A stretch of DNA of 64,000 nt, from the NCBI RefSeq assembly GCF_013167455.1, contig NZ_CP038328.1, one strand, 5' to 3'. The translations under genes were made by a program, and so were the position numbers. Under the pieces are notes generated by a model, which saw nothing but the letters and a program-made list of their open reading frames with translations, did not search any database and was not told where the DNA came from. Shown one piece after another: positions 1,724-53,202 of this stretch (positions within the stretch are counted from its first letter, which is position 1; every line of letters begins with the position of its first letter). This DNA comes from Escherichia coli O157:H7. Its GTDB lineage: Bacteria; Pseudomonadota; Gammaproteobacteria; Enterobacterales; Enterobacteriaceae.

Positions 1724-1742
1724 ATAACACTCCGTGGCTGGT

Positions 1743-2693: not shown

Positions 2694-2981
2694 AGGAAAT
2701 ACTCCTTGAAAAGTAAAGTGTTAGATGAGTGCGTTAATTCACACTTCTGAGAAATTTCGCTAAACGCATCAAAAAAGCATAGCAGACAGGCATGGTATTG
2801 CTGGATTAAGCAGGTAACATCAGTGTTATAGGATTATTACCAAAACATTATATTAATGGTGAGAGTTTGGACTTGCTCAAAGTCTGTAGACTCCGGCAAG
2901 GTAATAATGTGCGCCACGTTGTGGGCAGGGGCTGTTGCCCACACACTTTATTTGTGAACGTTACGTGAAAGGAACAACCAA

Positions 2982-5261: not shown

Positions 5262-5553
5262 TTCTTTTTTAACTCTCACGCTTACCCTGAATATTCAGGG
5301 TAAGCGGTTTAGCTGCAATATATTAGTAAAGCTTATTACTGAGTTTGCGAATAATAAAAAAAGCAGTATATAAAATATCTCGATATTATTTTATTTATAT
5401 TCATGCGTCGCATATGAAAGTTTATTCATAACAGTAAATATCTCTCCATTCTTAGTGATCTACCTCACCTTTTAAACGCGCTTGCCGAATTTTGTTATTT
5501 ACTCTGACGAAAAATTGTCACGATACACGAAAGTTTTTCACAGGCGGCGACTC

Positions 5554-5889
5554 ATGGATAAAGAACGCATCATTCAGGAATTTGTGCCCGGCAAACAGGT
5601 CACACTGGCGCATCTCATCGCGCATCCCGGCGAGGAACTGGCGAAGAAAATCGGCGTTCCGGATGCGGGCGCAATTGGCATTATGACGCTAACTCCCGGC
5701 GAAACGGCGATGATCGCCGGTGATTTAGCGCTGAAAGCCGCCGATGTGCATATCGGATTTCTCGACCGCTTCAGTGGTGCATTGGTGATTTATGGCTCGG
5801 TGGGCGCAGTAGAAGAAGCGTTATCACAAACCGTCAGTGGTTTAGGTCGCTTATTAAATTATACGCTTTGTGAAATGACCAAAAGTTAA
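5554..5889 (+). CDS. eutS: ethanolamine utilisation microcompartment shell protein EutS
   Basis: ORF track 5482..5889; 111-aa product from internal ATG at 5554 ([10 protein letters not shown]...), BMC-domain protein at head of eut operon. Confidence 0.85.
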
Positions 5890-5901
5890 TACGAGGCATT
5901 C

Positions 5902-6381
5902 ATGAAACGAATTGCGTTTGTGGGTACCGTCGGGGCAGGGAAAACAACGTTATTTAATGCGTTGCAGGGGAATTATACCCTCGCCAGAAAAACACAGGCC
6001 GTGGAATTTAATGATAAGGGCGATATTGATACGCCGGGTGAATATTTTAGCCATCCCCGCTGGTATCACGCCTTAATTACCACGCTACAGGATGTGGACA
6101 TGCTGATCTATGTCCACGGCGCGAATGACCCGGAAAGTCGGTTGCCTGCCGGGTTGCTGGATATTGGCGTCAGCAAACGGCAAATCGCCGTCATCAGTAA
6201 AACGGACATGCCGGATGCTGACGTCGCCGCAACGCGAAAGTTATTGCTTGAGACGGGCTTCGAGGAGCCGATTTTCGAGCTAAACAGCCACGACCCGCAA
6301 AGCGTGCAGCAACTGGTGGATTATCTGGCATCTCTCACCAAACAGGAGGAAGCAGGTGAAAAAACTCATCACAGCGAATGA
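5902..6381 (+). CDS. eutP: EutP, P-loop GTPase/acetate-kinase-like eut protein
   Basis: 159-aa ORF with Walker A GTVGAGKTT; operon position. Confidence 0.9.
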   Translation: MKRIAFVGTVGAGKTTLFNALQGNYTLARKTQAVEFNDKGDIDTPGEYFSHPRWYHALITTLQDVDMLIYVHGANDPESRLPAGLLDIGVSKRQIAVISKTDMPDADVAATRKLLLETGFEEPIFELNSHDPQSVQQLVDYLASLTKQEEAGEKTHHSE

Positions 6382-7057
6382 TATTCGTGAAGCACACGCG
6401 CGCGGCGAACAGGCAATGTCCGTGGTTCTGCGCGCCAGCATTATTACCCCGGAAGCCCGTGAAGTGGCGGATCTACTGGGTTTTACCATCACCGAATGTG
6501 ATGAATTGATCCCGGTAACGGCGTCCGTGCCCGCCAGCGTGCCAGCCGATAAAACCGAAAGCCAGCGCATCCGCGAAACCATTATCGCCCAGCTACCGGA
6601 AGGCCAGTTTACCGAAAGCCTGGTCGCGCAGCTGATGGAAAAAGTGATGAAGGAAAAACAGTCGCTGGAGCAGGGTGCAATGCAGCCGAGCTTCAAATCG
6701 GTGACCGGCAAAGGCGGCATCAAAGTGATTGATGGTAGCAGCGTCAAGTTTGGTCGCTTTGATGGCGCACAACCGCATTGCGTGGGCTTGACTGATCTTG
6801 TGACCGGAGACGACGGCAGCAGCATGGCCGCCGGTTTTATGCAGTGGGAGAACGCATTCTTCCCGTGGACCCTGAACTACGACGAAATCGACATGGTGCT
6901 GGAAGGGGAGCTCCATGTTCGCCACGAAGGCGAAACCATGATCGCTAAAGCAGGCGACGTGATGTTTATCCCGAAAGGCTCCAGCATCGAATTTGGTACG
7001 ACATCCAGCGTGAAATTCCTGTATGTCGCCTGGCCGGCTAACTGGCAATCCCTATGA
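6356..7057 (+). CDS. eutQ: EutQ, cupin-domain eut protein
   Basis: 233-aa ORF, GTG start overlapping eutP 3' end by 26 nt. Confidence 0.88.
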   Translation: MKKLITANDIREAHARGEQAMSVVLRASIITPEAREVADLLGFTITECDELIPVTASVPASVPADKTESQRIRETIIAQLPEGQFTESLVAQLMEKVMKEKQSLEQGAMQPSFKSVTGKGGIKVIDGSSVKFGRFDGAQPHCVGLTDLVTGDDGSSMAAGFMQWENAFFPWTLNYDEIDMVLEGELHVRHEGETMIAKAGDVMFIPKGSSIEFGTTSSVKFLYVAWPANWQSL

Positions 7058-7785
7058 AAGATTTCATCACCGAAGCATGGCTAAGAGCGAACCATACGCT
7101 CAGCGAAGGCGCAGAGATCCATCTCCCTGCGGACAGTCGCCTGACGCCCTCTGCCCGGGAGTTGCTGGAAAGCCGCCATCTGCGCATCAAGTTTATTGAC
7201 GAGCAGGGCCGCCTGTTTGTTGACGATGAACAGCAGCAGCCGCAGCCCGTTCATGGGCTAACCAGTAGCGATGAACATCCGCAGGCGTGCTGCGAACTGT
7301 GCCGCCAGCCGGTGGCAAAAAAGCCGGATACGCTGACTCACCTGTCGGCGGAAAAAATGGTCGCCAAAAGCGATCCGCGTCTGGGTTTTCGCGCAGTTCT
7401 CGACAGCACCATTGCGCTGGCAGTGTGGCTGCAAATTGAACTGGCGGAACCGCTGGGCTGCCAGGCGATTGTCGGGCTTTCTGACGAAGATCTGCACCGG
7501 CTTTCTCATCAGCCGTTGCGTTATCTTGGTCACGATCATCTGGTGCCGGAAGCAAGCCACGGGCGCGATGCGGCGTTGCTGAATCTGCTACGCACCAAAG
7601 TGCGGGAAGCCGAAACCGTAGCGGCGCAGGTGTTTATCACCCGCAGTTTTGAAGTATTACGCCCGGACATCTTGCAGGCGCTGAACCGCCTTTCCAGCAC
7701 GGTCTACGTGATGATGATCCTGAGCGTAACGAAGCAGCCGCTAACGGTGAAGCAGATCCAACAACGACTGGGGGAAACGCAATGA
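7054..7785 (+). CDS. eutT: EutT, ethanolamine corrinoid adenosyltransferase
   Basis: 243-aa [17 protein letters not shown]..., Cys-rich HPQACCELC motif; ATGA overlap with eutQ stop. True start not verified. Confidence 0.85.
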
Positions 7786-8798
7786 TTATTGAACGTTGTT
7801 GTGAACTGGCGTTGCGAGCGCCCGCCAGAGTGGTTTTTCCGGATGCGTTAGATCAACGTGTGCTGAAAGCTGCGCAATATTTACATCAACAAGGTCTGGC
7901 AACGCCCATTCTGGTCGCCAATCCGTTTGAACTTCGTCAGTTTGCGCTCAGTCACGGCGTGGCGATGGACGGGCTACAGGTGATAGATCCGCATGGCAAC
8001 CTCGCAATGCGGGAAGAATTTGCTCATCGCTGGCTGGCCCGCGCGGGCGAAAAAACGCCGCCGGATGCGCTGGAAAAACTTACCGATCCGCTGATGTTCG
8101 CCGCCGCAATGGTCAGCGCCGGTAAAGCGGATGTCTGTATCGCGGGCAACCTCTCTTCCACGGCGAATGTGCTGCGTGCCGGATTACGCATTATCGGCTT
8201 GCAGCCAGGCTGTAAAACGCTCTCATCCATTTTCCTGATGCTGCCACAGTACAGCGGTCCGGCGTTGGGCTTTGCCGATTGCAGCGTGGTACCACAGCCG
8301 ACGGCGGCGCAGCTGGCGGATATCGCGCTTGCCAGCGCCGAAACCTGGCGCGCCATCACCGGAGAAGAGCCGCGCGTGGCGATGCTGTCGTTTTCCAGTA
8401 ACGGTAGCGCCCGTCACCCCTGCGTTGCCAATGTCCAGCAGGCGACAGAAATCGTCCGTGAGCGCGCACCAAAGCTGGTAGTCGATGGCGAGTTGCAGTT
8501 TGACGCCGCCTTCGTGCCGGAAGTGGCGGCGCAAAAAGCGCCTGCCAGCCCGCTACAGGGCAAGGCCAATGTGATGGTTTTTCCGTCGCTGGAAGCCGGA
8601 AATATTGGCTACAAAATCGCACAACGACTCGGCGGATATCGTGCCGTCGGGCCATTGATACAAGGACTTGCCGCGCCGATGCACGATCTCTCTCGTGGTT
8701 GTAGTGTGCAGGAAATTATCGAGCTGGCGCTGGTGGCAGCTGTGCCGCGTCAGACAGAAGTGAACCGCGAAAGCAGTTTACAAACACTGGTTGAATGA
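7782..8798 (+). CDS. eutD: EutD phosphotransacetylase
   Basis: 338-aa PTA-family ORF; start overlaps eutT stop (ATGA). Confidence 0.9.
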
Positions 8799-8836
8799 AC
8801 GGTCCCGTTCTGGACCCTGATAAAGAGGAAAGCACA

Positions 8837-9130
8837 ATGGAAGCATTAGGAATGATCGAAACCCGGGGCCTGGTTGCACTGATTGAGGCTTCTGACGCGA
8901 TGGTGAAAGCTGCGCGCGTCAAGCTGGTTGGTGTTAAGCAGATTGGCGGCGGCCTGTGTACTGCCATGGTTCGTGGTGATGTTGCAGCCTGTAAAGCGGC
9001 GACCGATGCCGGTGCCGCAGCGGCACAGCGTATCGGCGAGCTGGTATCTGTACACGTTATCCCGCGTCCGCACGGCGACCTGGAAGAAGTGTTCCCGATC
9101 GGCCTGAAAGGCGATAGCAGCAACCTGTAA
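8837..9130 (+). CDS. eutM: EutM, major BMC shell protein
   Basis: 97-aa product [26 protein letters not shown]... (canonical BMC-H domain); SD AAGAGGA upstream of ATG 8837. Confidence 0.92.
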
Positions 9131-9236
9131 TCACCCTGTGTGACGTCGATTCGGGCGTCACGCTCTCTCATTTTTCATTTTACCTTCCGCGGAGGGTAGG
9201 GGGAGCTTTTACCTGAAATACGCCACGGAGGCGGGT

Positions 9237-9524
9237 ATGAAACTGGCAGTCGTCACTGGACAAATTGTTTGTACCGTACGCCATCACGGACTGGCGCATG
9301 ACAAATTGCTGATGGTGGAAATGATTGATCCACATGGTAATCCTGACGGGCAATGTGCCGTCGCCATCGACAATATTGGCGCGGGAACCGGGGAGTGGGT
9401 GTTGCTGGTGAGTGGCAGTTCCGCCCGCCAGGCGCATAAAAGCGAAACGTCACCGGTCGATCTGTGCGTGATTGGCATCGTCGATGAGGTGGTGTCTGGC
9501 GGTCAGGTAATTTTCCACAAATAA
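9237..9524 (+). CDS. eutN: EutN, BMC vertex (pentamer) protein
   Basis: 95-aa ORF MKLAVVTGQIVCTVRHHGL..., EutN/CcmL family. Confidence 0.9.
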   Translation: MKLAVVTGQIVCTVRHHGLAHDKLLMVEMIDPHGNPDGQCAVAIDNIGAGTGEWVLLVSGSSARQAHKSETSPVDLCVIGIVDEVVSGGQVIFHK

Positions 9525-9535
9525 GGCAGAACATC

Positions 9536-10939
9536 ATGAATCAACAGGATATTGAACAGGTGGTGAAAGCGGTACTGCTGAAAATGCAAAGCAGTGACAC
9601 GCCGCCCGCCGCCGTTCATGAGATGGGCGTTTTCGCGTCCCTGGATGACGCTGTTGCGGCAGCCAAAATTGCCCAGCAAGGGTTAAAGAGCGTGGCAATG
9701 CGCCAGTTAGCCATTGCTGCCATTCGTGAAGCAGGCGAAAAACACGCCAGAGATTTAGCGGAACTTGCCGTCAGTGAAACCGGCATGGGTCGCGTTGAAG
9801 ATAAATTTGCCAAAAACGTCGCTCAGGCACGCGGCACGCCAGGCGTTGAGTGTCTCTCTCCGCAAGTGCTGACGGGCGACAACGGCCTGACTTTAATTGA
9901 AAACGCGCCCTGGGGCGTGGTGGCTTCGGTGACGCCGTCCACTAACCCGGCGGCAACCGTAATTAATAACGCCATCAGCCTGATTGCCGCGGGCAACAGC
10001 GTCATTTTTGCCCCGCATCCGGCGGCGAAAAAAGTCTCCCAGCGGGCGATCACGCTGCTCAACCAGGCGATTGTTGCCGCAGGCGGGCCGGAAAACTTAC
10101 TGGTTACTGTGGCAAATCCGGATATCGAAACCGCGCAACGCTTGTTCAAGTTTCCGGGTATCGGCCTGCTGGTGGTGACCGGCGGCGAAGCGGTAGTAGA
10201 AGCGGCGCGTAAACACACCAATAAACGTCTGATTGCCGCAGGCGCTGGCAACCCGCCGGTAGTGGTGGATGAAACCGCTGACCTCGCCCGTGCTGCTCAG
10301 TCCATCGTCAAAGGCGCGTCTTTCGATAACAACATCATTTGTGCCGACGAAAAGGTACTGATTGTTGTTGATAGCGTAGCCGATGAACTGATGCGTCTGA
10401 TGGAAGGCCAGCACGCGGTGAAACTGACCGCAGAACAGGCGCAGCAGCTGCAACCGGTGTTGCTGAAAAATATCGACGAGCGCGGAAAAGGCACCGTCAG
10501 CCGTGACTGGGTTGGTCGCGACGCAGGCAAAATCGCGGCGGCAATCGGCCTTAAAGTTCCGCAAGAAACGCGCCTGCTGTTTGTGGAAACCACCGCAGAA
10601 CATCCGTTTGCCGTGACTGAACTGATGATGCCGGTGTTGCCCGTCGTGCGCGTCGCCAACGTGGCGGATGCCATTGCGCTAGCGGTGAAACTGGAAGGCG
10701 GTTGCCACCACACGGCGGCAATGCACTCGCGCAACATCGAAAACATGAACCAGATGGCGAATGCTATTGATACCAGCATTTTCGTTAAGAACGGACCGTG
10801 CATTGCCGGGCTGGGGCTGGGCGGGGAAGGCTGGACCACCATGACCATCACCACGCCAACCGGTGAAGGGGTGACCAGCGCGCGTACGTTTGTCCGTCTG
10901 CGTCGCTGTGTATTAGTCGATGCGTTTCGCATTGTTTAA
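9536..10939 (+). CDS. eutE: EutE, CoA-acylating acetaldehyde dehydrogenase
   Basis: 467-aa aldehyde dehydrogenase-family ORF. Confidence 0.92.
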   Translation: MNQQDIEQVVKAVLLKMQSSDTPPAAVHEMGVFASLDDAVAAAKIAQQGLKSVAMRQLAIAAIREAGEKHARDLAELAVSETGMGRVEDKFAKNVAQARGTPGVECLSPQVLTGDNGLTLIENAPWGVVASVTPSTNPAATVINNAISLIAAGNSVIFAPHPAAKKVSQRAITLLNQAIVAAGGPENLLVTVANPDIETAQRLFKFPGIGLLVVTGGEAVVEAARKHTNKRLIAAGAGNPPVVVDETADLARAAQSIVKGASFDNNIICADEKVLIVVDSVADELMRLMEGQHAVKLTAEQAQQLQPVLLKNIDERGKGTVSRDWVGRDAGKIAAAIGLKVPQETRLLFVETTAEHPFAVTELMMPVLPVVRVANVADAIALAVKLEGGCHHTAAMHSRNIENMNQMANAIDTSIFVKNGPCIAGLGLGGEGWTTMTITTPTGEGVTSARTFVRLRRCVLVDAFRIV

Positions 10940-10949
10940 GGAGTAACAG

Positions 10950-11786
10950 ATGGCGCACGACGAACAATGGCTCACCCCACGTCTGCAAACGGCGGCAACG
11001 CTGTGTAACCAGACGCCCGCCGCGACGGAATCTCCGCTGTGGCTGGGAGTGGATCTGGGCACCTGCGATGTGGTGTCGATGGTTGTCGACCGCGACGGTC
11101 AGCCAGTGGCGGTATGCCTCGACTGGGCCGATGTGGTTCGCGACGGCATCGTCTGGGATTTCTTCGGCGCGGTCACCATTGTTCGTCGCCATCTCGACAC
11201 GCTCGAGCAGCAATTCGGTCGTCGTTTTAGCCATGCGGCGACTTCATTTCCTCCAGGTACGGACCCGCGTATTTCCATCAACGTGCTGGAGTCTGCCGGG
11301 CTGGAAGTGAGCCATGTGCTGGATGAGCCAACCGCAGTCGCGGATCTGCTGCAACTGGACAACGCCGGTGTAGTGGATATCGGCGGTGGCACTACCGGCA
11401 TTGCCATCGTGAAAAAGGGCAAAGTGACGTACTCGGCGGATGAAGCCACCGGCGGACATCACATCTCTCTGACTTTCGCCGGAAATCGCCGTATTTCGCT
11501 GGAAGAGGCGGAGCAGTACAAGCGCGGTCACGGTGAAGAGATTTGGCCTACGGTGAAACCGGTGTACGAAAAAATGGCGGACATTGTCGCCCGGCATATT
11601 GAAGGGCAGGGCATTACTGATTTATGGCTGGCGGGCGGCTCCTGTATGCAACCGGGCGTGGCAGAACTGTTTCGCAAACAATTCCCGGCGTTACAGGTGC
11701 ATTTACCGCAGCACAGTTTGTTTATGACCCCGCTGGCGATCGCCAGTAGTGGGCGAGAGAAAGCGGAGGGGCTATATGCAAAATGA
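10950..11786 (+). CDS. eutJ: EutJ, Hsp70/actin-fold chaperone-like protein
   Basis: 278-aa ORF with DLGTCDV and DIGGGTTGIAIV ATPase-fold motifs. Confidence 0.9.
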   Translation: MAHDEQWLTPRLQTAATLCNQTPAATESPLWLGVDLGTCDVVSMVVDRDGQPVAVCLDWADVVRDGIVWDFFGAVTIVRRHLDTLEQQFGRRFSHAATSFPPGTDPRISINVLESAGLEVSHVLDEPTAVADLLQLDNAGVVDIGGGTTGIAIVKKGKVTYSADEATGGHHISLTFAGNRRISLEEAEQYKRGHGEEIWPTVKPVYEKMADIVARHIEGQGITDLWLAGGSCMQPGVAELFRKQFPALQVHLPQHSLFMTPLAIASSGREKAEGLYAK

Positions 11787-12963
11787 ATTGCAGACCGCGC
11801 TCTTTCAGGCGTTCGATACCCTGAATCTGCAACGGGTAAAAACATTTAGCGTTCCACCGGTGACGCTTTGCGGTCCGGGCTCGGTGAGCAGTTGCGGACA
11901 GCAAGCGCAAACGCGTGGGCTGAAACATCTGTTCGTGATGGCAGACAGCTTTTTGCATCAGGCAGGGATGACCGCCGGGCTGACGCGTAGCCTGGCCGTT
12001 AAAGGTATCGCCATGACGCTCTGGCCATGTCCGGTGGGCGAACCGTGCATTACCGACGTGTGTGCAGCCGTGGCGCAGTTGCGTGAGTCAGGTTGTGACG
12101 GGGTGATCGCATTTGGCGGCGGCTCGGTGCTGGATGCGGCGAAAGCCGTGGCGTTGCTGGTGACGAACCCGGATAGCACGCTGGCAGAGATGTCAGAAAC
12201 CAGCGTTCTGCAACCGCGCTTGCCGCTGATTGCCATTCCAACTACCGCCGGAACCGGCTCTGAAACCACCAATGTAACGGTGATTATCGACGCGGTGAGC
12301 GGGCGCAAGCAGGTGTTAGCCCATGCCTCGCTGATGCCGGATGTGGCGATCCTCGACGCCGCATTGACCGAAGGTGTGCCGTCGCATGTCACGGCGATGA
12401 CCGGCATTGATGCGTTAACCCATGCCATTGAAGCATACAGCGCCCTGAACGCTACACCGTTTACCGACAGTCTGGCGATTGGTGCCATTGCGATGATTGG
12501 CAAATCGCTGCCGAAAGCGGTGGGCTACGGTCACGACCTTGCCGCGCGCGAGAGCATGTTGCTGGCTTCATGTATGGCGGGAATGGCGTTTTCCAGTGCG
12601 GGTCTTGGGTTGTGCCACGCGATGGCGCATCAGCCGGGCGCGGCGCTGCATATTCCGCACGGTCTCGCGAACGCTATGTTGCTGCCAACGGTGATGGAGT
12701 TTAACCGGATGGTTTGTCGCGAACGCTTTAGTCAGATTGGTCGGGCACTGCGAACTAAAAAATCCGACGATCGTGACGCTATTAACGCGGTAAGTGAGCT
12801 GATTGCGGAAGTTGGGATTGGTAAACGACTGGGCGATGTTGGCGCGACATCTGCGCATTACGGTGCATGGGCGCAGGCCGCGCTGGAAGATATTTGTCTG
12901 CGCAGCAACCCGCGTACCGCCAGCCTGGAACAGCTTGTCGGCCTGTACGCAGCGGCGCAATAA
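11776..12963 (+). CDS. eutG: EutG, iron-containing alcohol dehydrogenase
   Basis: ORF track 11749..12963; start taken at ATG 11776 (MQNELQTALFQ...), overlapping eutJ 3' end. Confidence 0.9.
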   Translation: MQNELQTALFQAFDTLNLQRVKTFSVPPVTLCGPGSVSSCGQQAQTRGLKHLFVMADSFLHQAGMTAGLTRSLAVKGIAMTLWPCPVGEPCITDVCAAVAQLRESGCDGVIAFGGGSVLDAAKAVALLVTNPDSTLAEMSETSVLQPRLPLIAIPTTAGTGSETTNVTVIIDAVSGRKQVLAHASLMPDVAILDAALTEGVPSHVTAMTGIDALTHAIEAYSALNATPFTDSLAIGAIAMIGKSLPKAVGYGHDLAARESMLLASCMAGMAFSSAGLGLCHAMAHQPGAALHIPHGLANAMLLPTVMEFNRMVCRERFSQIGRALRTKKSDDRDAINAVSELIAEVGIGKRLGDVGATSAHYGAWAQAALEDICLRSNPRTASLEQLVGLYAAAQ

Positions 12964-12965
12964 AT

Positions 12966-13030
12966 GCCGCGTCTTATCCGGTCTGTGGGATTGCACATGT
13001 AGTGCGGATAAGGCTTCACGCAGCATCCGC
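12966..13030. repeat. REP-like palindromic element in eutG-eutH intergenic region
   Basis: GCCGCGTCTTATCCGG ... CGGATAAGGCTTCACGCAGCATCCGC inverted REP-type arms. Confidence 0.7.
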
Positions 13031-13062
13031 TAATAAATAACAACTAACAGGGAGTAAAGGCG

Positions 13063-14289
13063 ATGGGAATTAACGAAATCATCATGTACATCATGATGTT
13101 CTTTATGCTGATAGCTGCCGTTGACAGGATCCTGTCACAGTTCGGCGGTTCTGCTCGTTTCCTCGGTAAGTTCGGTAAAAGTATCGAAGGATCCGGCGGT
13201 CAGTTCGAAGAAGGCTTTATGGCAATGGGCGCACTGGGCCTGGCGATGGTCGGTATGACCGCGCTGGCACCGGTACTGGCTCACGTACTCGGGCCGGTAA
13301 TTATTCCGGTTTACGAAATGCTCGGCGCTAACCCATCGATGTTCGCCGGAACACTGCTGGCGTGCGATATGGGCGGCTTCTTCCTCGCCAAAGAGCTGGC
13401 GGGCGGCGACGTAGCCGCGTGGCTATACTCTGGGTTAATTCTCGGGTCGATGATGGGGCCAACGATTGTGTTTTCCATTCCGGTGGCGCTCGGCATTATC
13501 GAACCTTCTGACCGTCGTTATCTGGCGCTCGGCGTGCTGGCGGGCATTGTGACCATTCCGATTGGTTGTATCGCTGGTGGTCTGGTTGCTATGTACTCCG
13601 GTGTTCAGATCAACGGCCAGCCGGTGGAATTCACTTTCGCCCTGATCCTGATGAACATGATCCCGGTGATCATTGTTGCGATTCTGGTGGCGCTGGGGCT
13701 GAAATTCATCCCAGAAAAAATGATCAACGGCTTCCAGATCTTCGCCAAATTCCTCGTTGCATTGATCACCCTCGGTCTTGCCGCTGCGGTAGTGAAATTC
13801 CTGCTTGGCTGGGAACTGATCCCCGGTCTGGATCCTATCTTTATGGCCCCTGGCGATAAACCCGGTGAGGTGATGCGCGCCATTGAAGTTATCGGTTCTA
13901 TCTCCTGCGTTCTGTTAGGGGCGTATCCGATGGTGCTGCTGCTGACCCGCTGGTTTGAAAAACCGCTGATGAGCGTCGGTAAAGTGCTGAATATGAACAA
14001 CATCGCGGCAGCCGGCATGGTGGCAACGCTTGCCAACAACATCCCGATGTTCGGCATGATGAAGCAGATGGATACCCGCGGCAAAGTCATCAACTGCGCC
14101 TTCGCCGTTTCCGCTGCTTTCGCCCTGGGCGACCACTTAGGCTTCGCCGCTGCCAACATGAATGCCATGATCTTCCCGATGATTGTCGGCAAGTTGATCG
14201 GCGGCGTAACGGCGATTGGCGTGGCGATGATGCTGGTGCCAAAAGACGACGCGACCGCGGCTAAAACCGAAGCGGAGGCACAATCGTGA
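13063..14289 (+). CDS. eutH: EutH, ethanolamine permease
   Basis: 408-aa highly hydrophobic polytopic membrane ORF. Confidence 0.9.
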   Translation: MGINEIIMYIMMFFMLIAAVDRILSQFGGSARFLGKFGKSIEGSGGQFEEGFMAMGALGLAMVGMTALAPVLAHVLGPVIIPVYEMLGANPSMFAGTLLACDMGGFFLAKELAGGDVAAWLYSGLILGSMMGPTIVFSIPVALGIIEPSDRRYLALGVLAGIVTIPIGCIAGGLVAMYSGVQINGQPVEFTFALILMNMIPVIIVAILVALGLKFIPEKMINGFQIFAKFLVALITLGLAAAVVKFLLGWELIPGLDPIFMAPGDKPGEVMRAIEVIGSISCVLLGAYPMVLLLTRWFEKPLMSVGKVLNMNNIAAAGMVATLANNIPMFGMMKQMDTRGKVINCAFAVSAAFALGDHLGFAAANMNAMIFPMIVGKLIGGVTAIGVAMMLVPKDDATAAKTEAEAQS

Positions 14290-15689
14290 ACACTCGCCAG
14301 CTACTGAGCGTCGGTATCGATATCGGCACCACCACCACCCAGGTGATTTTCTCCCACCTGGAACTGGTTAACCGTGCGGCGGTGTCGCAGGTGCCGCGCT
14401 ACGAATTCATCAAACGCGAAATTAGCTGGCAAAGCCCGGTGTTCTTTACCCCTGTCGATAAACAGGGTGGTTTAAAAGAAGCGGAACTGAAATCGCTGAT
14501 TTTAGAGCAATATCAGGCTGCGGGCATTGCGCCGGAAAGCGTTGATTCTGGTGCCATCATCATCACCGGTGAAAGCGCGAAAACCCGCAATGCTCGCCCG
14601 GCGGTGATGGCGCTCTCTCAGTCGCTGGGCGATTTTGTCGTCGCCAGCGCCGGGCCGCACCTCGAATCCGTGATCGCCGGTCACGGTGCCGGGGCGCAAA
14701 CCCTTTCTGAACAACGGCTGTGTCGGGTACTGAATATCGACATCGGCGGTGGCACCGCGAACTACGCCCTGTTCGATGCCGGAAAAATCAGCGGCACTGC
14801 CTGCCTCAACGTCGGTGGTCGCCTGCTGGAAACCGACAGCCAGGGGCGCGTGGTTTACGCTCATAAACCGGGGCAGATGATTGTGGATGAGTGTTTCGGT
14901 GCAGGCACTGACGTCCGTTCGCTGACCGGCGCGCAGCTGGTGCAGGTTACCCGACGGATGGCAGAGCTGATTGTCGAAGTGATTGACGGAACGCTTTCGC
15001 CGCTCGCGCAGGCATTAATGCAAACCGGTTTGCTGCCCGCAGGTGTTACGCCCGAAATCATTACGCTTTCTGGCGGCGTGGGCGAATGTTATCGCCACCA
15101 GCCCGCTGACCCGTTCTGTTTTGCCGATATTGGCCCGCTACTGGCGACGGCGCTACATGACCATCCGCGCCTGCGTGAGATGAACGTGCAGTTTCCGGCG
15201 CAAACCGTGCGCGCCACGGTGATTGGCGCGGGCGCACATACCCTTTCGCTCTCTGGCAGCACAATCTGGCTGGAGGGCGTACAACTGCCGCTGCGCAATT
15301 TGCCGGTGGCGATCCCGATTGATGAAACGGATCTGGTGAGTGCCTGGCAACAGGCGCTGATTCAGCTGGATCTTGATCCCAAAACTGACGCGTACGTGCT
15401 GGCGCTTCCCGCCTCGCTGCCTGTGCGTTACGCCGCGGTACTGACGGTCATCAACGCGTTGGTCGATTTCGTCGCGCGTTTTCCGAATCCGCATCCCCTG
15501 CTGGTGGTGGCCGGGCAGGACTTTGGTAAAGCTCTGGGCATGCTGTTGCGCCCACAGCTACAACAACTCCCGTTGGCAGTCATTGACGAAGTGATTGTCC
15601 GCGCGGGGGACTATATCGACATTGGTACGCCTCTTTTTGGCGGATCGGTTGTGCCGGTGACGGTGAAATCACTCGCATTTCCTTCCTGA
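14286..15689 (+). CDS. eutA: EutA, ethanolamine ammonia-lyase reactivase
   Basis: 467-aa ORF, GTG start overlapping eutH stop; immediately followed by eutB. Confidence 0.9.
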   Translation: MNTRQLLSVGIDIGTTTTQVIFSHLELVNRAAVSQVPRYEFIKREISWQSPVFFTPVDKQGGLKEAELKSLILEQYQAAGIAPESVDSGAIIITGESAKTRNARPAVMALSQSLGDFVVASAGPHLESVIAGHGAGAQTLSEQRLCRVLNIDIGGGTANYALFDAGKISGTACLNVGGRLLETDSQGRVVYAHKPGQMIVDECFGAGTDVRSLTGAQLVQVTRRMAELIVEVIDGTLSPLAQALMQTGLLPAGVTPEIITLSGGVGECYRHQPADPFCFADIGPLLATALHDHPRLREMNVQFPAQTVRATVIGAGAHTLSLSGSTIWLEGVQLPLRNLPVAIPIDETDLVSAWQQALIQLDLDPKTDAYVLALPASLPVRYAAVLTVINALVDFVARFPNPHPLLVVAGQDFGKALGMLLRPQLQQLPLAVIDEVIVRAGDYIDIGTPLFGGSVVPVTVKSLAFPS

Positions 15690-15700
15690 GGGAACGACTT

Positions 15701-17062
15701 ATGAAACTAAAGACCACATTGTTCGGCAATGTATATCAGTTTAAGGATGTAAAAGAGGTGCTGGCTAAAGCCAACGAACTGCGTTCGGGGGATGTGCTGG
15801 CGGGCGTCGCAGCGGCAAGCTCACAGGAGCGCGTGGCGGCAAAGCAGGTGTTGTCGGAAATGACCGTAGCGGACATCCGCAATAATCCGGTGATTGCCTA
15901 TGAAGATGACTGCGTGACGCGGCTGATTCAGGACGATGTTAACGAAACGGCCTACAACCAGATTAAAAACTGGAGCATCAGCGAACTGCGTGAGTATGTG
16001 CTGAGCGATGAAACCAGCGTGGACGACATTGCCTTTACCCGCAAAGGGCTGACCTCGGAAGTGGTCGCGGCGGTAGCGAAGATTTGCTCCAACGCGGACC
16101 TGATCTACGGCGCGAAGAAAATGCCGGTAATCAAAAAGGCCAATACCACCATCGGTATTCCGGGCACCTTCAGCGCCCGTTTGCAGCCAAATGACACCCG
16201 TGACGACGTGCAAAGTATCGCCGCGCAAATCTACGAAGGGCTTTCCTTCGGGGTGGGCGATGCGGTGATCGGCGTTAACCCGGTGACTGACGACGTGGAA
16301 AACTTAAGCCGCGTGCTGGACACCATCTATGGCGTGATCGACAAATTCAACATCCCAACTCAGGGCTGCGTACTGGCGCACGTCACCACCCAGATCGAAG
16401 CGATTCGTCGCGGCGCGCCTGGCGGACTGATTTTCCAGAGTATCTGTGGCAGCGAAAAAGGGCTGAAAGAGTTTGGCGTGGAACTGGCGATGCTCGACGA
16501 AGCGCGCGCAGTGGGTGCAGAGTTCAACCGTATCGCCGGGGAAAACTGCCTCTACTTCGAAACCGGACAAGGTTCAGCGCTATCCGCTGGCGCTAACTTC
16601 GGCGCAGACCAGGTGACGATGGAAGCACGTAACTATGGGCTGGCGCGTCATTACGATCCGTTTATCGTCAACACCGTGGTCGGCTTTATTGGGCCGGAGT
16701 ATCTCTACAACGACCGCCAGATTATCCGTGCGGGCTTAGAAGATCACTTTATGGGCAAGCTGAGCGGCATCTCTATGGGCTGTGACTGCTGTTACACCAA
16801 CCACGCTGACGCTGACCAGAACCTCAACGAAAACCTGATGATCCTGCTCGCCACCGCAGGCTGCAACTACATCATGGGGATGCCGCTGGGTGATGACATC
16901 ATGCTCAACTACCAGACCACCGCATTCCACGATACCGCCACTGTGCGTCAGTTACTCAACCTGCGCCCGTCACCGGAGTTTGAACGCTGGCTGGAAAGCA
17001 TGGGCATTATGGCAAACGGTCGCCTGACCAAACGGGCGGGCGATCCGTCACTGTTCTTCTGA
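15701..17062 (+). CDS. eutB: ethanolamine ammonia-lyase large subunit
   Basis: 453-aa ORF MKLKTTLFGNVYQFKDVKEVLAKANELRSGD... Confidence 0.95.
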   Translation: MKLKTTLFGNVYQFKDVKEVLAKANELRSGDVLAGVAAASSQERVAAKQVLSEMTVADIRNNPVIAYEDDCVTRLIQDDVNETAYNQIKNWSISELREYVLSDETSVDDIAFTRKGLTSEVVAAVAKICSNADLIYGAKKMPVIKKANTTIGIPGTFSARLQPNDTRDDVQSIAAQIYEGLSFGVGDAVIGVNPVTDDVENLSRVLDTIYGVIDKFNIPTQGCVLAHVTTQIEAIRRGAPGGLIFQSICGSEKGLKEFGVELAMLDEARAVGAEFNRIAGENCLYFETGQGSALSAGANFGADQVTMEARNYGLARHYDPFIVNTVVGFIGPEYLYNDRQIIRAGLEDHFMGKLSGISMGCDCCYTNHADADQNLNENLMILLATAGCNYIMGMPLGDDIMLNYQTTAFHDTATVRQLLNLRPSPEFERWLESMGIMANGRLTKRAGDPSLFF

Positions 17063-17082
17063 TGACGCGGAGATAACACATC

Positions 17083-17970
17083 ATGGATCAAAAACAGATT
17101 GAAGAAATTGTACGCAGCGTGATGGCGTCAATGGGACAAACGGCCCCCGCGCCGTCAGAAGCAAAGTGCGCCACTACCACCTGTGCGGCACCGGTGACCT
17201 CGGAAAGCTGCGCGCTGGATTTAGGTTCTGCGGAAGCAAAAGTGTGGATTGGTGTTGAAAACCCACATCGTGCGGATGTGTTAACAGAACTGCGTCGCAG
17301 CACCGTGGCCCGCGTTTGTACCGGTCGTGCCGGTCCGCGTCCGCGTACGCTGGCGCTGCTGCGTTTCCTGGCCGATCACTCTCGTTCGAAAGATACCGTA
17401 CTGAAAGAAGTGCCGGAAGAGTGGGTGAAAGCGCAGGGCTTGCTGGAAGTACGCTCCGAAATTAGCGACAAAAATCTCTACCTGACTCGCCCGGATATGG
17501 GCCGCCGCCTGTGTGCAGAAGCTGTTGAAGCGCTGAAAGCACAGTGTGTTGCTAATCCGGACGTACAGGTCGTTATTTCTGATGGCCTGTCAACTGATGC
17601 CATCACTGTGAACTACGAAGAGATCCTGCCGCCGCTGATGGCGGGCCTGAAACAGGCCGGGCTGAAAGTCGGCACGCCATTCTTTGTTCGTTATGGTCGC
17701 GTGAAGATTGAAGATCAGATCGGTGAGATCCTCGGCGCGAAAGTAGTGATCCTGCTGGTGGGCGAACGTCCGGGGTTGGGTCAGTCAGAAAGCCTCTCCT
17801 GCTACGCCGTTTACTCGCCGCGTATGGCGACCACCGTTGAGGCCGATCGCACCTGTATCTCTAACATTCACCAGGGCGGCACGCCGCCGGTTGAAGCCGC
17901 AGCCGTCATTGTGGATTTGGCGAAACGTATGCTGGAGCAGAAAGCATCCGGCATCAACATGACCCGATAA
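17083..17970 (+). CDS. eutC: ethanolamine ammonia-lyase small subunit
   Basis: 295-aa [20 protein letters not shown]... directly after eutB. Confidence 0.95.
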
Positions 17971-17979
17971 GGAGGCATC

Positions 17980-18639
17980 ATGCCAGCTTTAGATTTGATT
18001 CGACCGTCGGTAACCGCCATGCGGGTGATTGCCTCCGTTAACGCCGATTTTGCGCGTGAACTGAAATTGCCGCCACATATTCGTAGCCTCGGTCTGATTT
18101 CTGCCGATTCTGACGACGTAACCTACATTGCGGCTGACGAAGCGACCAAACAAGCGATGGTAGAAGTGGTATATGGTCGCTCGCTGTATGCGGGCGCGGC
18201 ACACGGCCCGTCACCGACTGCCGGTGAGGTGCTGATTATGCTTGGTGGGCCAAACCCGGCGGAAGTGCGTGCCGGTCTGGATGCGATGGTTGCGCATATT
18301 GAAAATGGCGCTGCTTTCCAGTGGGCTAATGATGCGCAAGATACGGCATTCCTGGCACATGTAGTTTCGCGTACCGGTTCTTATCTCTCATCAACCGCCG
18401 GGATCACGCTTGGCGATCCGATGGCGTATCTGGTGGCACCGCCGCTGGAAGCGACCTACGGCATTGATGCAGCGTTGAAATCTGCCGACGTACAGCTGGT
18501 GACCTATGTCCCGCCACCGTCTGAAACTAACTACTCGGCAGCATTTTTAACCGGTAGCCAGGCAGCGTGTAAAGCGGCCTGTAACGCCTTTACCGATGCA
18601 GTGCTGGAAATCGCGCGTAATCCAATCCAGCGTGCGTAA
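17980..18639 (+). CDS. eutL: EutL, tandem-BMC-domain shell protein
   Basis: 219-aa ORF, operon position. Confidence 0.9.
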
Positions 18640-18651
18640 CGGAGGTTGCCA

Positions 18652-19152
18652 ATGATCAATGCACTGGGATTGCTGGAAGTGGACGGCATGGTCGCCGCGA
18701 TAGATGCAGCGGATGCCATGCTCAAAGCAGCTAACGTTCGTCTGCTCAGTCACGAAGTGCTTGACCCAGGTCGCTTAACGCTGGTGGTGGAAGGCGATCT
18801 GGCGGCGTGTCGTGCTGCGCTGGACGCAGGTTGTGCTGCCGCGATGCGTACCGGGCGTGTCATCAGCCGTAAGGAGATCGGTCGGCCAGACGATGACACC
18901 CAGTGGCTGGTTACTGGCTTTAACCGCCAGCCGAAGCAACCCGTAAAGGAACCCGACGCGCCAGTTATCGTCGCGGAATCTGCTGACGAGTTGTTGGCGC
19001 TGTTAACATCAGTACGTCAGGGAGTGACGGCAGGAGAAGTGGCTGCCCACTTTGGCTGGCCGCTGGAAAAAGCCAGAAATGCGCTCGAACAGCTCTTTTC
19101 TGCTGGGACGTTACGTAAACGCAGTAGTCGTTATCGTCTCAAGCCCCATTAA
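18652..19152 (+). CDS. eutK: EutK, BMC shell protein with C-terminal nucleic-acid-binding-like domain
   Basis: ORF track begins at a TTG (18646); ATG at 18652 gives 166 aa (MINALGLLEVDGMVAAIDAADAMLKAA...), SD ACGGAGG upstream. Confidence 0.85.
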   Translation: MINALGLLEVDGMVAAIDAADAMLKAANVRLLSHEVLDPGRLTLVVEGDLAACRAALDAGCAAAMRTGRVISRKEIGRPDDDTQWLVTGFNRQPKQPVKEPDAPVIVAESADELLALLTSVRQGVTAGEVAAHFGWPLEKARNALEQLFSAGTLRKRSSRYRLKPH

Positions 19153-19197
19153 CCTGTCGGAGGTGCCGGGTGTCCTACAACACCCGGCATTAACATC

Positions 19198-20250
19198 ATG
19201 AAAAAGACCCGTACAGCCAATTTGCACCATCTTTATCATGAACCCTTACCCGAAAACCTGAAGCTCACGCCGAAGGTCGAAGTGGATAATGTTCATCAAC
19301 GACAGACAACGGATGTCTATGAACATGCTTTAACGATTACCGCCTGGCAGCAGATTTACGATCAGCTGCATCCGGGCAAGTTTCATGGTGAATTTACGGA
19401 AATTCTACTCGATGATATTCAGGTTTTTCGTGAATACACCGGTCTGGCGCTGCGTCAGTCGTGTCTGGTCTGGCCGAACTCGTTCTGGTTTGGCATTCCG
19501 GCGACGCGCGGTGAGCAGGGATTTATCGGTTCGCAATGTCTGGGAAGCGCAGAAATAGCGACGCGCCCTGGTGGAACCGAGTTTGAATTAAGTACGCCGG
19601 ACGATTACACGATCCTGGGCGTAGTGCTTTCTGAAGATGTCATCACCCGTCAGGCTAACTTTTTGCATAATCCGGATCGGGTATTACATATGTTGCGTAG
19701 CCAGTCGGCGCTGGAAGTGAAAGAGCAGCATAAAGCCGCGCTGTGGGGCTTTGTCCAACAGGCGCTGGCGACGTTTTGCGAGAACCCGGAAAATCTCCAT
19801 CAGCCTGCAGTGCGAAAAGTGCTGGGGGATAATTTGCTAATGGCGATGGGGGCGATGCTGGAAGAAGCGCAGCCAATGGTGACGGCGGAAAGCATCAGTC
19901 ATCAGAGTTACCGTCGGTTGCTTTCCCGCGCCCGTGAATATGTGCTGGAAAACATGTCCGAACCGGTGACGGTGCTGGACTTGTGTAATCAACTGCATGT
20001 CAGCCGCCGCACGCTACAAAACGCGTTTCACGCTATTTTAGGAATTGGCCCGAACGCGTGGCTGAAACGCATTCGCCTGAACGCCGTACGCCGCGAACTG
20101 ATAAGCCCGTGGTCGCAAAGCACAACGGTAAAAGACGCCGCCATGCAGTGGGGATTCTGGCATCTGGGGCAATTTGCCACGGATTACCAGCAGCTGTTTG
20201 CCGAGAAGCCGTCGTTGACGTTGCATCAGCGGATGCGGGAATGGGGGTGA
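19198..20250 (+). CDS. eutR: EutR, AraC-family activator of the eut operon
   Basis: 350-aa ORF with C-terminal AraC-type HTH; last gene of operon. Confidence 0.9.
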
Positions 20251-20255
20251 GGGAG

Positions 20256-21158
<903 letters not shown>

Positions 21159-22028
21159 TTATCGCTTTTTCGAATGTGCTTTCTGGTTGTCGAACCAGTG
21201 GAAATAACTGATCACGCCTTCAGCAATCGCTGTGGCGATTTTCTGACGAAACGCCGCCGTGCCTAACAGTCGCTCTTCTTCCGGGTTGGTGATAAACGAG
21301 GTTTCCACCAGCACCGAAGGAACCGACGGCGATTTCAACACCACAAACGCGGCTTGTTCGGTGTTGCGGCTGTGCAGTTTATGCACCGGCTTAATCTTTT
21401 TCAGAATATGCGAGCCGAGCGTCAGGCTGTTTTTAATAGTATCGGTTTGCACCAGATCAAACAGCACTTGCTGCAATAGATGATCCTTGTCAGTCGCCTT
21501 TTTACCGGCAACTTCATCGGCGCGGTTTTCGCGTTCAGACAGGTATTTCGCCATTGCGCTACTTGCCCCACGGTTAGAGAGGGCAAATACCGAAGCACCG
21601 GCAGCTTTCGGGTTGGTAAAGCCATCGGCATGAATTGACATAAACAGATCTGCGCCATGTTTATGGGCGATTTCAACGCGATCGTAAAGTGGGATAAACG
21701 TATCGCCAGAACGCGTTAAACGCGCATCAATCCCATGATTACGCAAAATGGAACGGACGTTTTTAGCAATCGCCAGCACCACATGTTTTTCTTTCGAACC
21801 GTTGCGCCCGATCGCTCCGGTATCAATCCCGCCGTGGCCTGGATCGAGAACAACGACACGTTTGCCGCCAGATTTTTTAGCTTTCGGCTTGCTGTGTCCG
21901 TTGCTGGTTTTTAAAGGTTCGTCTTTGGCGATGGCTTGCGACATTCCTGACAACGTCAGGGCAGCCAAACCGGCTTTCAGCACCTGGCGGCGCGAAGTGA
22001 GTGTTTTTAGTGGTTTAAAAGTGCTCAT
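21159..22028 (-). CDS. amiA: N-acetylmuramoyl-L-alanine amidase A
   Basis: 289-aa ORF with Tat-like signal (SRRQVLKAGLAAL); stop 3 nt upstream of hemF start. Confidence 0.92.
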   Translation of the reverse strand: MSTFKPLKTLTSRRQVLKAGLAALTLSGMSQAIAKDEPLKTSNGHSKPKAKKSGGKRVVVLDPGHGGIDTGAIGRNGSKEKHVVLAIAKNVRSILRNHGIDARLTRSGDTFIPLYDRVEIAHKHGADLFMSIHADGFTNPKAAGASVFALSNRGASSAMAKYLSERENRADEVAGKKATDKDHLLQQVLFDLVQTDTIKNSLTLGSHILKKIKPVHKLHSRNTEQAAFVVLKSPSVPSVLVETSFITNPEEERLLGTAAFRQKIATAIAEGVISYFHWFDNQKAHSKKR

Positions 22029-22241
22029 ACGGCCTGAGTTGTAATAATAAAGTTCCAGATGTTATATCGTATCGCGTAATCCGTTACGACCGTTTGCTGT
22101 TGAGAATTGTTTTACTTTTCATTTCAATAGTTGACAACTCCCCATTATGCCACTTTTTCAACCGATTTTCGTCAGATATTGGCTAATTCGACCGTTCACG
22201 CCATAATCAGCCTTTTAACCCGCAAAAAGGTAACGAATACC

Positions 22242-22667
22242 ATGGAGATACGCGTATTTCGCCAGGAAGATTTCGAAGAGGTCATCACCCTTTGGGAGCG
22301 TTGCGACTTGCTGCGTCCGTGGAACGATCCGGAAATGGACATCGAGCGTAAGATGAACCATGACGTCAGTTTGTTTCTGGTCGCTGAGGTGAACGGTGAA
22401 GTGGTCGGAACGGTGATGGGCGGTTATGACGGGCATCGCGGGTCTGCTTATTATCTTGGCGTGCATCCAGAGTTTCGTGGGCGTGGGATTGCCAATGCGT
22501 TGCTTAACCGGCTGGAGAAAAAGCTGATTGCTCGCGGCTGCCCGAAAATTCAGATCAACGTGCCGGAAGATAACGACATGGTGCTCGGAATGTATGAACG
22601 CCTGGGATATGAACACGCCGACGTGCTGAGTCTGGGTAAGCGTTTGATTGAAGATGAAGAGTACTGA
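22242..22667 (+). CDS. ypeA: GNAT-family N-acetyltransferase
   Basis: ORF track 22131..22667; 141-aa product from ATG 22242 ([14 protein letters not shown]...). Confidence 0.85.
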
Positions 22668-23103
22668 GTTTCATCCTGTCCATTATGATGCGCACGGTCG
22701 CCTGCGTTTACCCTTGCTCTTCTGGCTTGTGCTATTGCTTCAGGCGCGAACCTGGGTGCTGTTTGTCATTGCCGGTGCGTCGCGCGAGCAGGGTACTGCG
22801 CTGCTAAATCTGTTTTATCCCGATCACGATAATTTCTGGCTGGGGCTGATTCCTGGCATTCCGGCGGTGCTGGCGTTTTTGTTGAGCGGTCGGCGGGCTA
22901 CGTTTCCTCGCACCTGGCGTGTACTCTATTTTCTGTTGCTGTTGGCGCAGGTGGTTTTACTTTGCTGGCAACCGTGGCTGTGGCTGAACGGTGAATCCGT
23001 TAGCGGTATCGGTCTGGCGCTGGTAGTGGCGGATATTGTGGCGTTAATCTGGCTGCTGACCAATCGACGTTTACGCGCTTGTTTTAATGAAGTAAAAGAA
23101 TAA
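22654..23103 (+). CDS. yfeZ: inner-membrane protein YfeZ
   Basis: 149-aa hydrophobic product from ATG 22654 ([11 protein letters not shown]...); ORF track extends 2 codons upstream to a TTG. Confidence 0.8.
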
Positions 23104-23163
23104 CGGCACTTTTTGGTGAATTTGCACTCCAAGCAACGTTATTGAATAACCAAAGGAAGTGAC

Positions 23164-23739
23164 ATGAAATCGCTGCGTTTAATGTTATGCGCTATGCCAT
23201 TGATGCTGACCGGCTGTTCCACGATGTCGTCAGTTAACTGGTCTGCCGCTAACCCGTGGAACTGGTTTGGGTCGTCCACCAAAGTGAGCGAGCAGGGCGT
23301 TGGTGAATTAACGGCGTCCACACCACTGCAAGAACAAGCCATTGCCGATGCGGTTGATGGCGATTATCGCCTGCGCAGCGGAATGAAAACCGCGAACGGC
23401 AACGTGGTGCGCTTTTTTGAAGTGATGAAGGGCGACAACGTGGCGATGGTGATTAACGGCGATCAAGGCACGATCAGTCGCATTGACGTGCTGGATAGCG
23501 ATATTCCTGCTGACACCGGTGTTAAAATCGGTACACCGTTTAGCGACCTTTACAGCAAAGCATTTGGCAATTGCCAAAAAGCTGATGGTGATGATAATCG
23601 TGCCGTCGAATGTAAAGCCGAAGGCAGTCAACATATTAGCTACCAGTTCAGCGGGGAATGGAGTGGTCCTGAAGGGTTAATGCCTTCGGACGATACCCTG
23701 AAAAACTGGAAAGTCAGTAAAATTATCTGGCGGCGTTAA
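23164..23739 (+). CDS. yfeY: lipoprotein YfeY
   Basis: 191-aa ORF with lipobox MLTGC; followed by terminator hairpin. Confidence 0.85.
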   Translation: MKSLRLMLCAMPLMLTGCSTMSSVNWSAANPWNWFGSSTKVSEQGVGELTASTPLQEQAIADAVDGDYRLRSGMKTANGNVVRFFEVMKGDNVAMVINGDQGTISRIDVLDSDIPADTGVKIGTPFSDLYSKAFGNCQKADGDDNRAVECKAEGSQHISYQFSGEWSGPEGLMPSDDTLKNWKVSKIIWRR

Positions 23740-23750
23740 TTTGCGTCTGA

Positions 23751-24734
<984 letters not shown>

Positions 24735-24791
24735 GCGTTTCTGATTCATTGATTAAAGGCCAGGCAGTAACATTACTGACTGGCCTTTTTA

Positions 24792-50240: not shown

Positions 50241-50247
50241 TTGGCCT

Positions 50248-50583
50248 GTGAAACGACTACAGGCATTTAAATTCCAGTTAAGACCAGGTGGTCAACAGGA
50301 GCGTGAAATGAGGCGCTTCGCAGGCGCATGTCGTTTCGTTTTCAATCGTGCTCTGGCGCTTCAGAATGAGAATCATGAGGCCGGTAATAAATACATCCCT
50401 TACGGGAAAATGGCTTCCTGGCTGGTTGAGTGGAAAAACGCCACTGAAACGCAATGGCTTAAAGATGCCCCGTCACAGCCATTGCAACAGTCACTGAAAG
50501 AGCTTGAGCGGGCTTACAAAAACTTCTTCCGGAAGCGGGCTGCTTTTCCCCGATTCAAAAAGCGGGGACAGAATGATGCATTC
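50248..50583 (+). pseudogene. tnpB: tnpB (RNA-guided nuclease of IS200/IS605 family), N-terminal fragment interrupted by IS629
   Basis: GTG-start ORF (M)KRLQAFKFQLRPGGQQEREMRRFAGACRFVFNRALA..., typical TnpB N-terminus; terminates at the first triplet (TGA) of the IS629 left end. Confidence 0.8.
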
Positions 50584-50637
50584 TGAACCGCCCCGGGAAT
50601 CCTGGAGACTAAACTCCCTGAGAAAGAGGTAAACAGG

Positions 50638-51851: not shown

Positions 51852-51896
51852 GTTCACAGATAAAACACTCTCCAGGAAAACCGGGGCGGTTCATTC

Positions 51897-52769: not shown

Positions 52770-52808
52770 ACGTAGCAGGGATCCTCGTCATTCAGGGCGT
52801 GGAGGATG

Positions 52809-53201: not shown

Positions 53202-53202
53202 A

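Follow-up and report, generated by a model that had tools for sequence, protein, structure and literature searches.

Is the uninterrupted eutA-eutB junction of E. coli O157:H7 the original arrangement of the eut operon, and what does it tell about the lineage from which the DNA comes? The question arises from the 64-kb stretch of O157:H7 DNA analysed here (henceforth referred to as the window), for which the initial annotation had claimed that the eut operon is contiguous, that contiguity is the ancestral state and that the sequence lies outside the K-12 lineage.

The eutA-eutB junction and the CPZ-55 attachment site

As the initial annotation had claimed, the stop codon of eutA and the start codon of eutB are 11 bp apart: TGA ends at 15689 and ATG begins at 15701. 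The gap between them (15690-15700), read directly, is GGGAACGACTT, and the junction reads ...CATTTCCTTCCTGA GGGAACGACTT ATGAAACTAAAG... or, in a longer form, ...GCATTTCCTTCCTGA GGGAACGACTT ATGAAACTAAAGACC... The EutB protein of the window shares 100% amino-acid identity with EutB of K-12 W3110. The features at the junction are:

14286..15689, + strand: eutA, ethanolamine ammonia-lyase reactivase, 467 aa, with TGA at 15687-15689 (NF007991, 1073.6 bits with the cut-off at 799; same length as in K-12 W3110)
15682..15689, + strand: attB core CTTCCTGA, unoccupied and in single copy, formed by the final 8 nt of eutA with its TGA (duplicated in BW2952 and 20AR0300)
15688..15692, + strand: likely eutB Shine-Dalgarno sequence GAGGG, read from the sequence, 8 nt upstream of the ATG and overlapping the eutA stop codon
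15690..15700, + strand: eutA-eutB intergenic spacer GGGAACGACTT, with the same text in K-12 W3110 and 35 other enterobacterial species
15701..17062, + strand: eutB, ethanolamine ammonia-lyase large subunit, 453 aa, with ATG at 15701 (NF011649, 664.7 bits with the cut-off at 554)

Contiguity of this kind could in principle be an artefact of assembly, with a prophage collapsed or dropped from the sequence. We found nothing in favour of such an artefact, and its probability is negligible: the same 25 kb recurs without a single difference in many complete O157:H7 genomes that were assembled independently, and the identical junction is present in thousands of genomes.

When we looked for adjacent eutA and eutB genes in the MG1655 reference (NC_000913.3), the annotated 'cryptic prophage CPZ-55' (2558691-2565480, 6790 bp) was found between eutB and eutA. 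It contains intZ and yffL to yffS and is oriented opposite to the eut operon; in K-12 BW2952, CPZ-55 occupies the same point. The statement that CPZ-55 splits eutA from eutB in MG1655 is borne out by this annotation, and it applies to BW2952 as well. With the junctions of BW2952 aligned to the window, the octamer CTTCCTGA was found at both ends of the prophage; the left flank of the core in the window matched the K-12 attL and the right flank matched the K-12 attR. The extended 16-nt att site has one occurrence in the window, and the reconstructed attP reads ...GATTCTTCCTGAATGCGGTATTC... It has been reported that CPZ-55 is integrated right after the eutA stop codon with an 8-bp duplication, given as TCAGGAAG (on the other strand), and that eutA and eutB are left unchanged (PMC6379469). 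In genes, flanks and 8-bp core CTTCCTGA the MG1655 site (eutA b2451/eutB b2441) is the same as that of the window; it differs in that 6790 bp are inserted and the core is duplicated, whereas in the window the core is single and nothing is inserted.

Other elements have been found at the same place. The position has been called a 'prophage insertion hot spot', and in UPEC U71 it is occupied by another prophage (PMC6652756). Strain 20AR0300 carries an 11-kb element with other cargo, an 86%-identical intZ, homologous ends and the same 8-bp duplication, and in strain 102651 the arrangement at this eutA/eutB place is scrambled by IS elements. The IntZ-family islands of U71 and 20AR0300 share attB and the 8-bp duplication with the CPZ-55 site and resemble CPZ-55 in their homologous ends and integrase; genomes of this type are occupied, by an 11-kb element with different cargo, whereas the window is empty. 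The core duplicated at two independent element types suggests that IntZ may recombine attP with this attB. In the 64-kb window, tblastn with IntZ detected no IntZ-like integrase (best E = 1.5); with no match below this value, we also discarded the idea that the remains of an integrase lie away from the junction. Overall, we hold with high confidence that the junction of the window is an empty attB for CPZ-55 and related IntZ-integrase elements, within an uninterrupted ancestral eut operon of the O157:H7 lineage.

Placement of the window and distribution of the empty site

The first 25 kb of the window (1-25000) are 100.0% identical, in one piece, to O157:H7 EDL933, 86-24, Xuzhou21 and many other O157:H7 genomes, whereas K-12 is ~98.1% identical to the window across eutA-eutB; membership of the K-12 lineage was rejected on this comparison. 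We also rejected exact identity with EDL933, since further along the window departs from NZ_CP008957.1 at a few SNPs and has one more IS3-family insertion as well as a second tRNA-Ala. Among complete genomes, none matched positions 49000-54500 of the window end to end. The claim that the sequence lies outside the K-12 lineage is consequently upheld by the 25-kb identity to O157:H7, although the junction, on which the initial annotation had drawn, does not by itself exclude K-12. K-12 W3110 (NC_007779.1) has no CPZ-55, its eutA and eutB genes are 11 bp apart and its junction text is that of the window; the DH5α assembly likewise has a contiguous eutA-eutB junction. Accordingly, the supposition that K-12 does not share the junction holds for MG1655 and BW2952, which carry CPZ-55, but fails for W3110 and the DH5α assembly. 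The same division appears in work that reports W3110 as eut+ and BW25113 as interrupted (Jallet et al., PMC11334477). Because W3110 and the DH5α assembly are without CPZ-55, its absence is not diagnostic of a non-K-12 origin and is unsuitable as a marker to tell K-12 from non-K-12 strains.

The empty site was found in 4964 of 5426 complete E. coli genomes with a 2-kb query over the junction (covered in one piece) and in 4962 of 5426 with a 121-nt junction-only query. Approximately 91% of complete E. coli genomes are thus empty and ~8.5% interrupted, in agreement with a previous report of interruption in 8% of 638 strains (PMC6379469). Homologues of intZ were present in 407 of the 5426 genomes, with a maximum of one per genome; 216 genomes had an intZ of at least 99% identity (K-12 type) and 189 had one of 80-90% identity. 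For the outgroups, a collection of species-representative genomes was scanned with a degenerate eutB N-terminal pattern, which yielded 35 loci from Citrobacter, Klebsiella, Salmonella arizonae, Yokenella, Pluralibacter, Pseudocitrobacter, Intestinirhabdus and other Escherichia species. All 35 species have eutA, then the same 11-nt spacer, then eutB, and an insert at the junction, which we looked for as a general feature of the outgroups, was seen in none of the 35. Since the site is empty in every outgroup species sampled and in most E. coli, contiguity is therefore ancestral and the inserts are derived, as the initial annotation had proposed.

We considered whether the site of the window had once been occupied by a CPZ-55-like element and then restored by precise integrase-mediated excision, which would make contiguity secondary. 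Such a history would be difficult to recognize at the junction: W3110 and the DH5α assembly are empty and scar-free while MG1655, BW2952 and BW25113 are occupied, and if W3110 lost the prophage, then precise loss is traceless and its scar-free product is indistinguishable from a site that was never occupied. Parsimony argues against it, given the proportion of E. coli genomes and the 35/35 outgroup species in which the site is empty, and so does the failure to find an integrase remnant in the window. Moreover, the genomes with intZ consist of the K-12 class and the 80-90% class and, judged by class and not per genome, show no sign of the O157:H7 clade. Secondary excision is thus very improbable, and we retain the reading of contiguity as ancestral. 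The empty junction in O157:H7 is the ordinary, already documented state; that it is not novel biology, as the initial annotation remarked, is evident from several publications (PMC6379469, PMC6652756, PMC7617246 and PMC11334477), and it is the MG1655 reference that represents an atypical state (~8% of genomes).

Conservation of the junction and expression of eutB

Conservation across genera was assessed with the window and the 35 outgroup loci, which comprise 29 distinct sequences from at least eight enterobacterial genera. Two features were located on the window in this way or by folding:

15647..15722, + strand: nearly invariant block, synonymous sites included, from -54 to +22 relative to the eutB ATG (36 sequences, 29 distinct)
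15678..15694, + strand: predicted RNA hairpin (UUUCCUU, CCU loop, GAGGGAA), which would bury the eutA stop codon and the eutB Shine-Dalgarno sequence and has the att core at its top

The 120 nt just upstream of the invariant block have a mean identity of 90.8%. In a test of third positions (2.8-kb alignment, 19 sequences, 45 alignment windows), conservation in the last 20 codons of eutA was 0.995 compared with a mean of 0.781 (sd 0.074; z 2.9), and the longest run of invariant third positions was 13 against a background in which 20% are invariant. Lesser peaks were found at the eutH-eutA and eutB-eutC junctions, which suggests a general effect at gene junctions, of which the eutA-eutB peak is the strongest instance. 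On the simplest account, the invariance probably reflects selection on the region of eutB translation initiation and coupling. Conservation of this kind would explain why integrases target the site, and it offers a rationale for the integration hot spot.

The consequences of occupation are known from BW25113. When supplied with ethanolamine and B12, this strain induces eutS and eutR but not eutB, and no microcompartments are formed (PMC7617246); it behaves as a Δeut strain, and once the prophage is taken out without a scar, it again grows on ethanolamine as nitrogen source (PMC11334477). As shown here and in the literature, IntZ-type elements insert at the 8-bp core CTTCCTGA that ends in the eutA stop codon, and the core is duplicated in the process; in MG1655, BW25113 and BW2952, ~6.8 kb of oppositely oriented prophage is thereby placed between eutA and eutB, and in BW25113, according to the literature, eutB is then uninduced and ethanolamine unused until the prophage is removed. 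At the empty site, one transcript would run from a promoter upstream of eutS through eutA into eutBCLK. With GAGGG overlapping the eutA stop codon, translation of eutB is probably coupled to termination on eutA, and a ribosome ending on eutA may open the hairpin at 15678-15694 that would bury the stop codon and the Shine-Dalgarno sequence, as in classical translational coupling. The constraint of coupling would keep the junction invariant across the Enterobacteriaceae, and its invariance would make it a dependable target for integration.

The hairpin itself is weak and only suggestive: its predicted energy is -6.2 kcal/mol (z -1.75), 11 of 200 shuffled sequences fold as well, and the invariance of the junction leaves no covariation signal to support it. 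A stable RNA structure over 15620-15760 (141 nt) was rejected, as its z of -0.76 did not set it apart from shuffled sequence. An internal promoter or + strand terminator at the junction was likewise rejected, since no promoter-like site was present and terminator-like matches occurred only on the minus strand, at chance frequency. A known RNA family at the junction was rejected too, since the Rfam scan of 15300-16100 (E<=10) returned only a chance snoRNA match whose 13.9 bits fall far below the gathering score of 75.

These results bear on other possible causes of the invariance, namely an RNA processing site, a site bound by a protein or sRNA, or local homogenisation by horizontal exchange. 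The length of the block, which at ~75 nt, tapering to ~190 nt of raised synonymous conservation, exceeds a typical ribosome-binding region, would fit such a cause; on the other hand, neither an Rfam family nor a promoter-like site nor unusual folding energy was found at the junction, and the peaks at eutH-eutA and eutB-eutC suggest an effect general to gene junctions. We regard a cause of this kind as unlikely and favour selection on eutB translation initiation and coupling. More speculatively, and with low probability, 15647-15722 might be a dedicated cis-acting RNA element (a coupling hairpin, a processing site or a standby site) that sets the EutA:EutB ratio and that IntZ-family elements evolved to use as a genus-spanning attachment site, in which case insertion would switch ethanolamine catabolism off and excision would switch it on.

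Gene content of the operon and a deletion in eutT

All 17 eut genes of the window, which form the chromosomal operon for the ethanolamine-utilisation microcompartment, score above the curated NCBIfam cut-offs, on the + strand and in the order eutS-P-Q-T-D-M-N-E-J-G-H-A-B-C-L-K-R, flanked by maeB and hemF. In addition to eutA and eutB, they are:

5554-5889, + strand: eutS
5902-6381, + strand: eutP
6356-7057, + strand: eutQ
7054..7785, + strand: eutT, corrinoid adenosyltransferase, 243 aa, without residues 132-155 of the 267-aa form (two matched stretches on the 267-position NCBIfam profile)
7446..7452, + strand: within eutT, the one copy left of the 7-bp repeat GGAACCG found on either side of the deleted 72 bp
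7782-8798, + strand: eutD/pta (NCBIfam)
8837-9130, + strand: eutM (NCBIfam)
9237-9524, + strand: eutN (NCBIfam)
9536-10939, + strand: eutE (NCBIfam)
10950-11786, + strand: eutJ (NCBIfam)
11776-12963, + strand: eutG (NCBIfam)
13063-14289, + strand: eutH (NCBIfam)
17083-17970, + strand: eutC (NCBIfam)
17980-18639, + strand: eutL (NCBIfam)
18652-19152, + strand: eutK (NCBIfam)
19198-20250, + strand: eutR (NCBIfam)

No internal stop codon was found in the 17 eut genes of the window, and 16 of them equal the corresponding K-12 W3110 genes exactly in length, with 98-100% amino-acid identity. The signature enzyme EutBC, the reactivase EutA, the shell proteins EutS/M/N/L/K and the regulator EutR are all full length. 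In gene set, gene order and 11-nt spacer, the window agrees with the 17-gene eut (EUT1) operon of Salmonella enterica, E. coli Nissle 1917, K-12 W3110 and EHEC EDL933 (PMC7617246, PMC11334477). The difference from uninterrupted EUT1 operons is that eutT of the window, and of ~307 genomes of the O157:H7 clade, is without 24 internal codons. The description of all 17 genes as intact and colinear is therefore right in that all are present, in canonical order and without internal stops, but has to be amended for eutT, which carries a 24-codon in-frame deletion.

The EutT protein of the window falls short of the full-length 267-aa form by this 72-bp in-frame deletion. The 24 residues absent are EPWQPWLADIRSRLGNIMRADALG, and the remainder is nearly identical to full-length E. 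coli EutT. The shortened gene still has an open reading frame, and in an identical genome it is annotated by RefSeq as an ordinary CDS; the Pfam Cob_adeno_trans match, which spans profile positions 11-169 in the long form, is reduced to 117-169 in the window. The direct 7-bp repeat at the deletion is the signature that slippage or a microhomology deletion would leave. A query over the deletion junction was matched in one piece at an identity of at least 99% in 307 of 5426 genomes, and the matches sampled from below that class contained the 72 extra bases; the 25-kb stretch was also matched at this threshold in 307 genomes, the two figures being compared as totals and not genome by genome. Counting by a search for the deleted segment was set aside as ambiguous, since divergent phylogroups also fail the 28-mer seed, and the junction query was cleaner.

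The same 72-bp difference in eutT between the commensal strain BG1 and EDL933 has previously been called an insertion in BG1, with the suggestion that the extra helix might explain the ethanolamine-negative phenotype of BG1 (PMC5634895). The distribution of the two forms among genomes, the 267 positions of the family profile and the repeat at the borders all speak, on sequence grounds, for a deletion in the O157:H7 clade rather than an insertion in BG1. This reading weakens the idea that the extra helix accounts for the phenotype of BG1, and the long form of eutT is present in K-12 W3110, which is ethanolamine-positive (PMC11334477).

As judged from its sequence, the operon is, given the eutT deletion, not strictly wild type in the O157:H7 lineage. 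CobA could substitute for EutT. The operon of EDL933 is identical in sequence to that of the window along its whole length, and EDL933 assimilates ethanolamine in bovine intestinal content, as Bertin 2011 is cited in PMC5634895. By analogy with the literature on EDL933, the operon of the window would be expected to support growth on ethanolamine with B12; the O157:H7 window carries, without interruption, the eut operon through which EHEC can use ethanolamine in the gut.

Occupancy and conservation of the eutA-eutB site

The cryptic prophage CPZ-55 occupies the eutA-eutB site in K-12 MG1655, BW2952 and BW25113, whereas the junction is empty and scar-free in K-12 W3110 (NC_007779.1; 14126-14138 of its locus) and likewise in one DH5α assembly. 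CPZ-55 is therefore polymorphic in K-12, which implies either its precise excision or else its late acquisition inside the K-12 pedigree. The same attachment site (attB) is occupied in strain 20AR0300 by an 11-kb island (773-12020 of its locus), the intZ integrase gene of which is ~86% identical to K-12 intZ. The island and CPZ-55 share the 8-bp duplication and have homologous ends, but the cargo of the island is wholly different and comprises an HNH endonuclease, an HTH protein and a 726-aa hypothetical protein. The 20AR0300 genome also has a frameshifted eutR. Separately, in strain 102651 (12846-24835 of its locus), copies of IS903B, IS3 and IS1 scramble the region, where neither eutA nor eutB has escaped truncation; between the two genes lie gadC, murI and a decarboxylase pseudogene, adjoining an intZ.

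The last bases of eutA together with the first of eutB (15647-15722) were essentially invariant, even at synonymous sites, in a comparison of 36 sequences drawn from several enterobacterial genera. Third-position conservation at the junction reached z = 2.9, and synonymous conservation was raised around this block, across about 15600-15790. The junction yielded no Rfam match, promoter-like site or unusual fold energy when each of these was looked for.

In-frame deletion in eutT

The eutT gene of the window (7054-7785) has lost 24 codons through a 72-bp in-frame deletion bordered by the 7-bp direct repeat GGAACCG, a copy of which lies at 7446-7452. The deletion junction was found in 307 of the 5426 complete E. 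coli genomes searched, and the number of genomes with at least 99% identity to the stretch at 1-25000 was the same. The 72-bp difference has been termed an ‘insertion’ in commensal BG1 (PMC5634895), the polarity of which is probably the reverse of that published.

Differences from EDL933 and other genomes

An IS3-family element of 1.3 kb (50584-51891), with ORFs of 108 and 295 aa and a layout resembling that of IS629, interrupts tnpB of an IS200/IS605 element (tnpB parts at 50248-50586 and 51963-52769). No complete genome matched this arrangement end to end; the O157:H7 strain EDL933 lacks the insertion, and some O157:H7 strains carry ISEc8 in this region.

Two tRNA-Ala(GGC) genes lie in tandem at 53783-53973, compared to one in the EDL933 RefSeq assembly. 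Further, yfeR (46248-47174) is an intact ORF of 308 codons in the window but is annotated in EDL933 (NZ_CP008957.1) as a pseudogene with an internal stop; two of the few SNPs between the window and EDL933 (46801 and 46964) fall inside it. The hemF gene (20256-21155, minus strand; 299 aa) is intact in the window, but the annotation of strain CDC#03-98 gives it a frameshift; this discrepancy probably reflects the assembly or is private to the strain. The eutA-eutB region of CDC#03-98 is 100% identical to that of the window.
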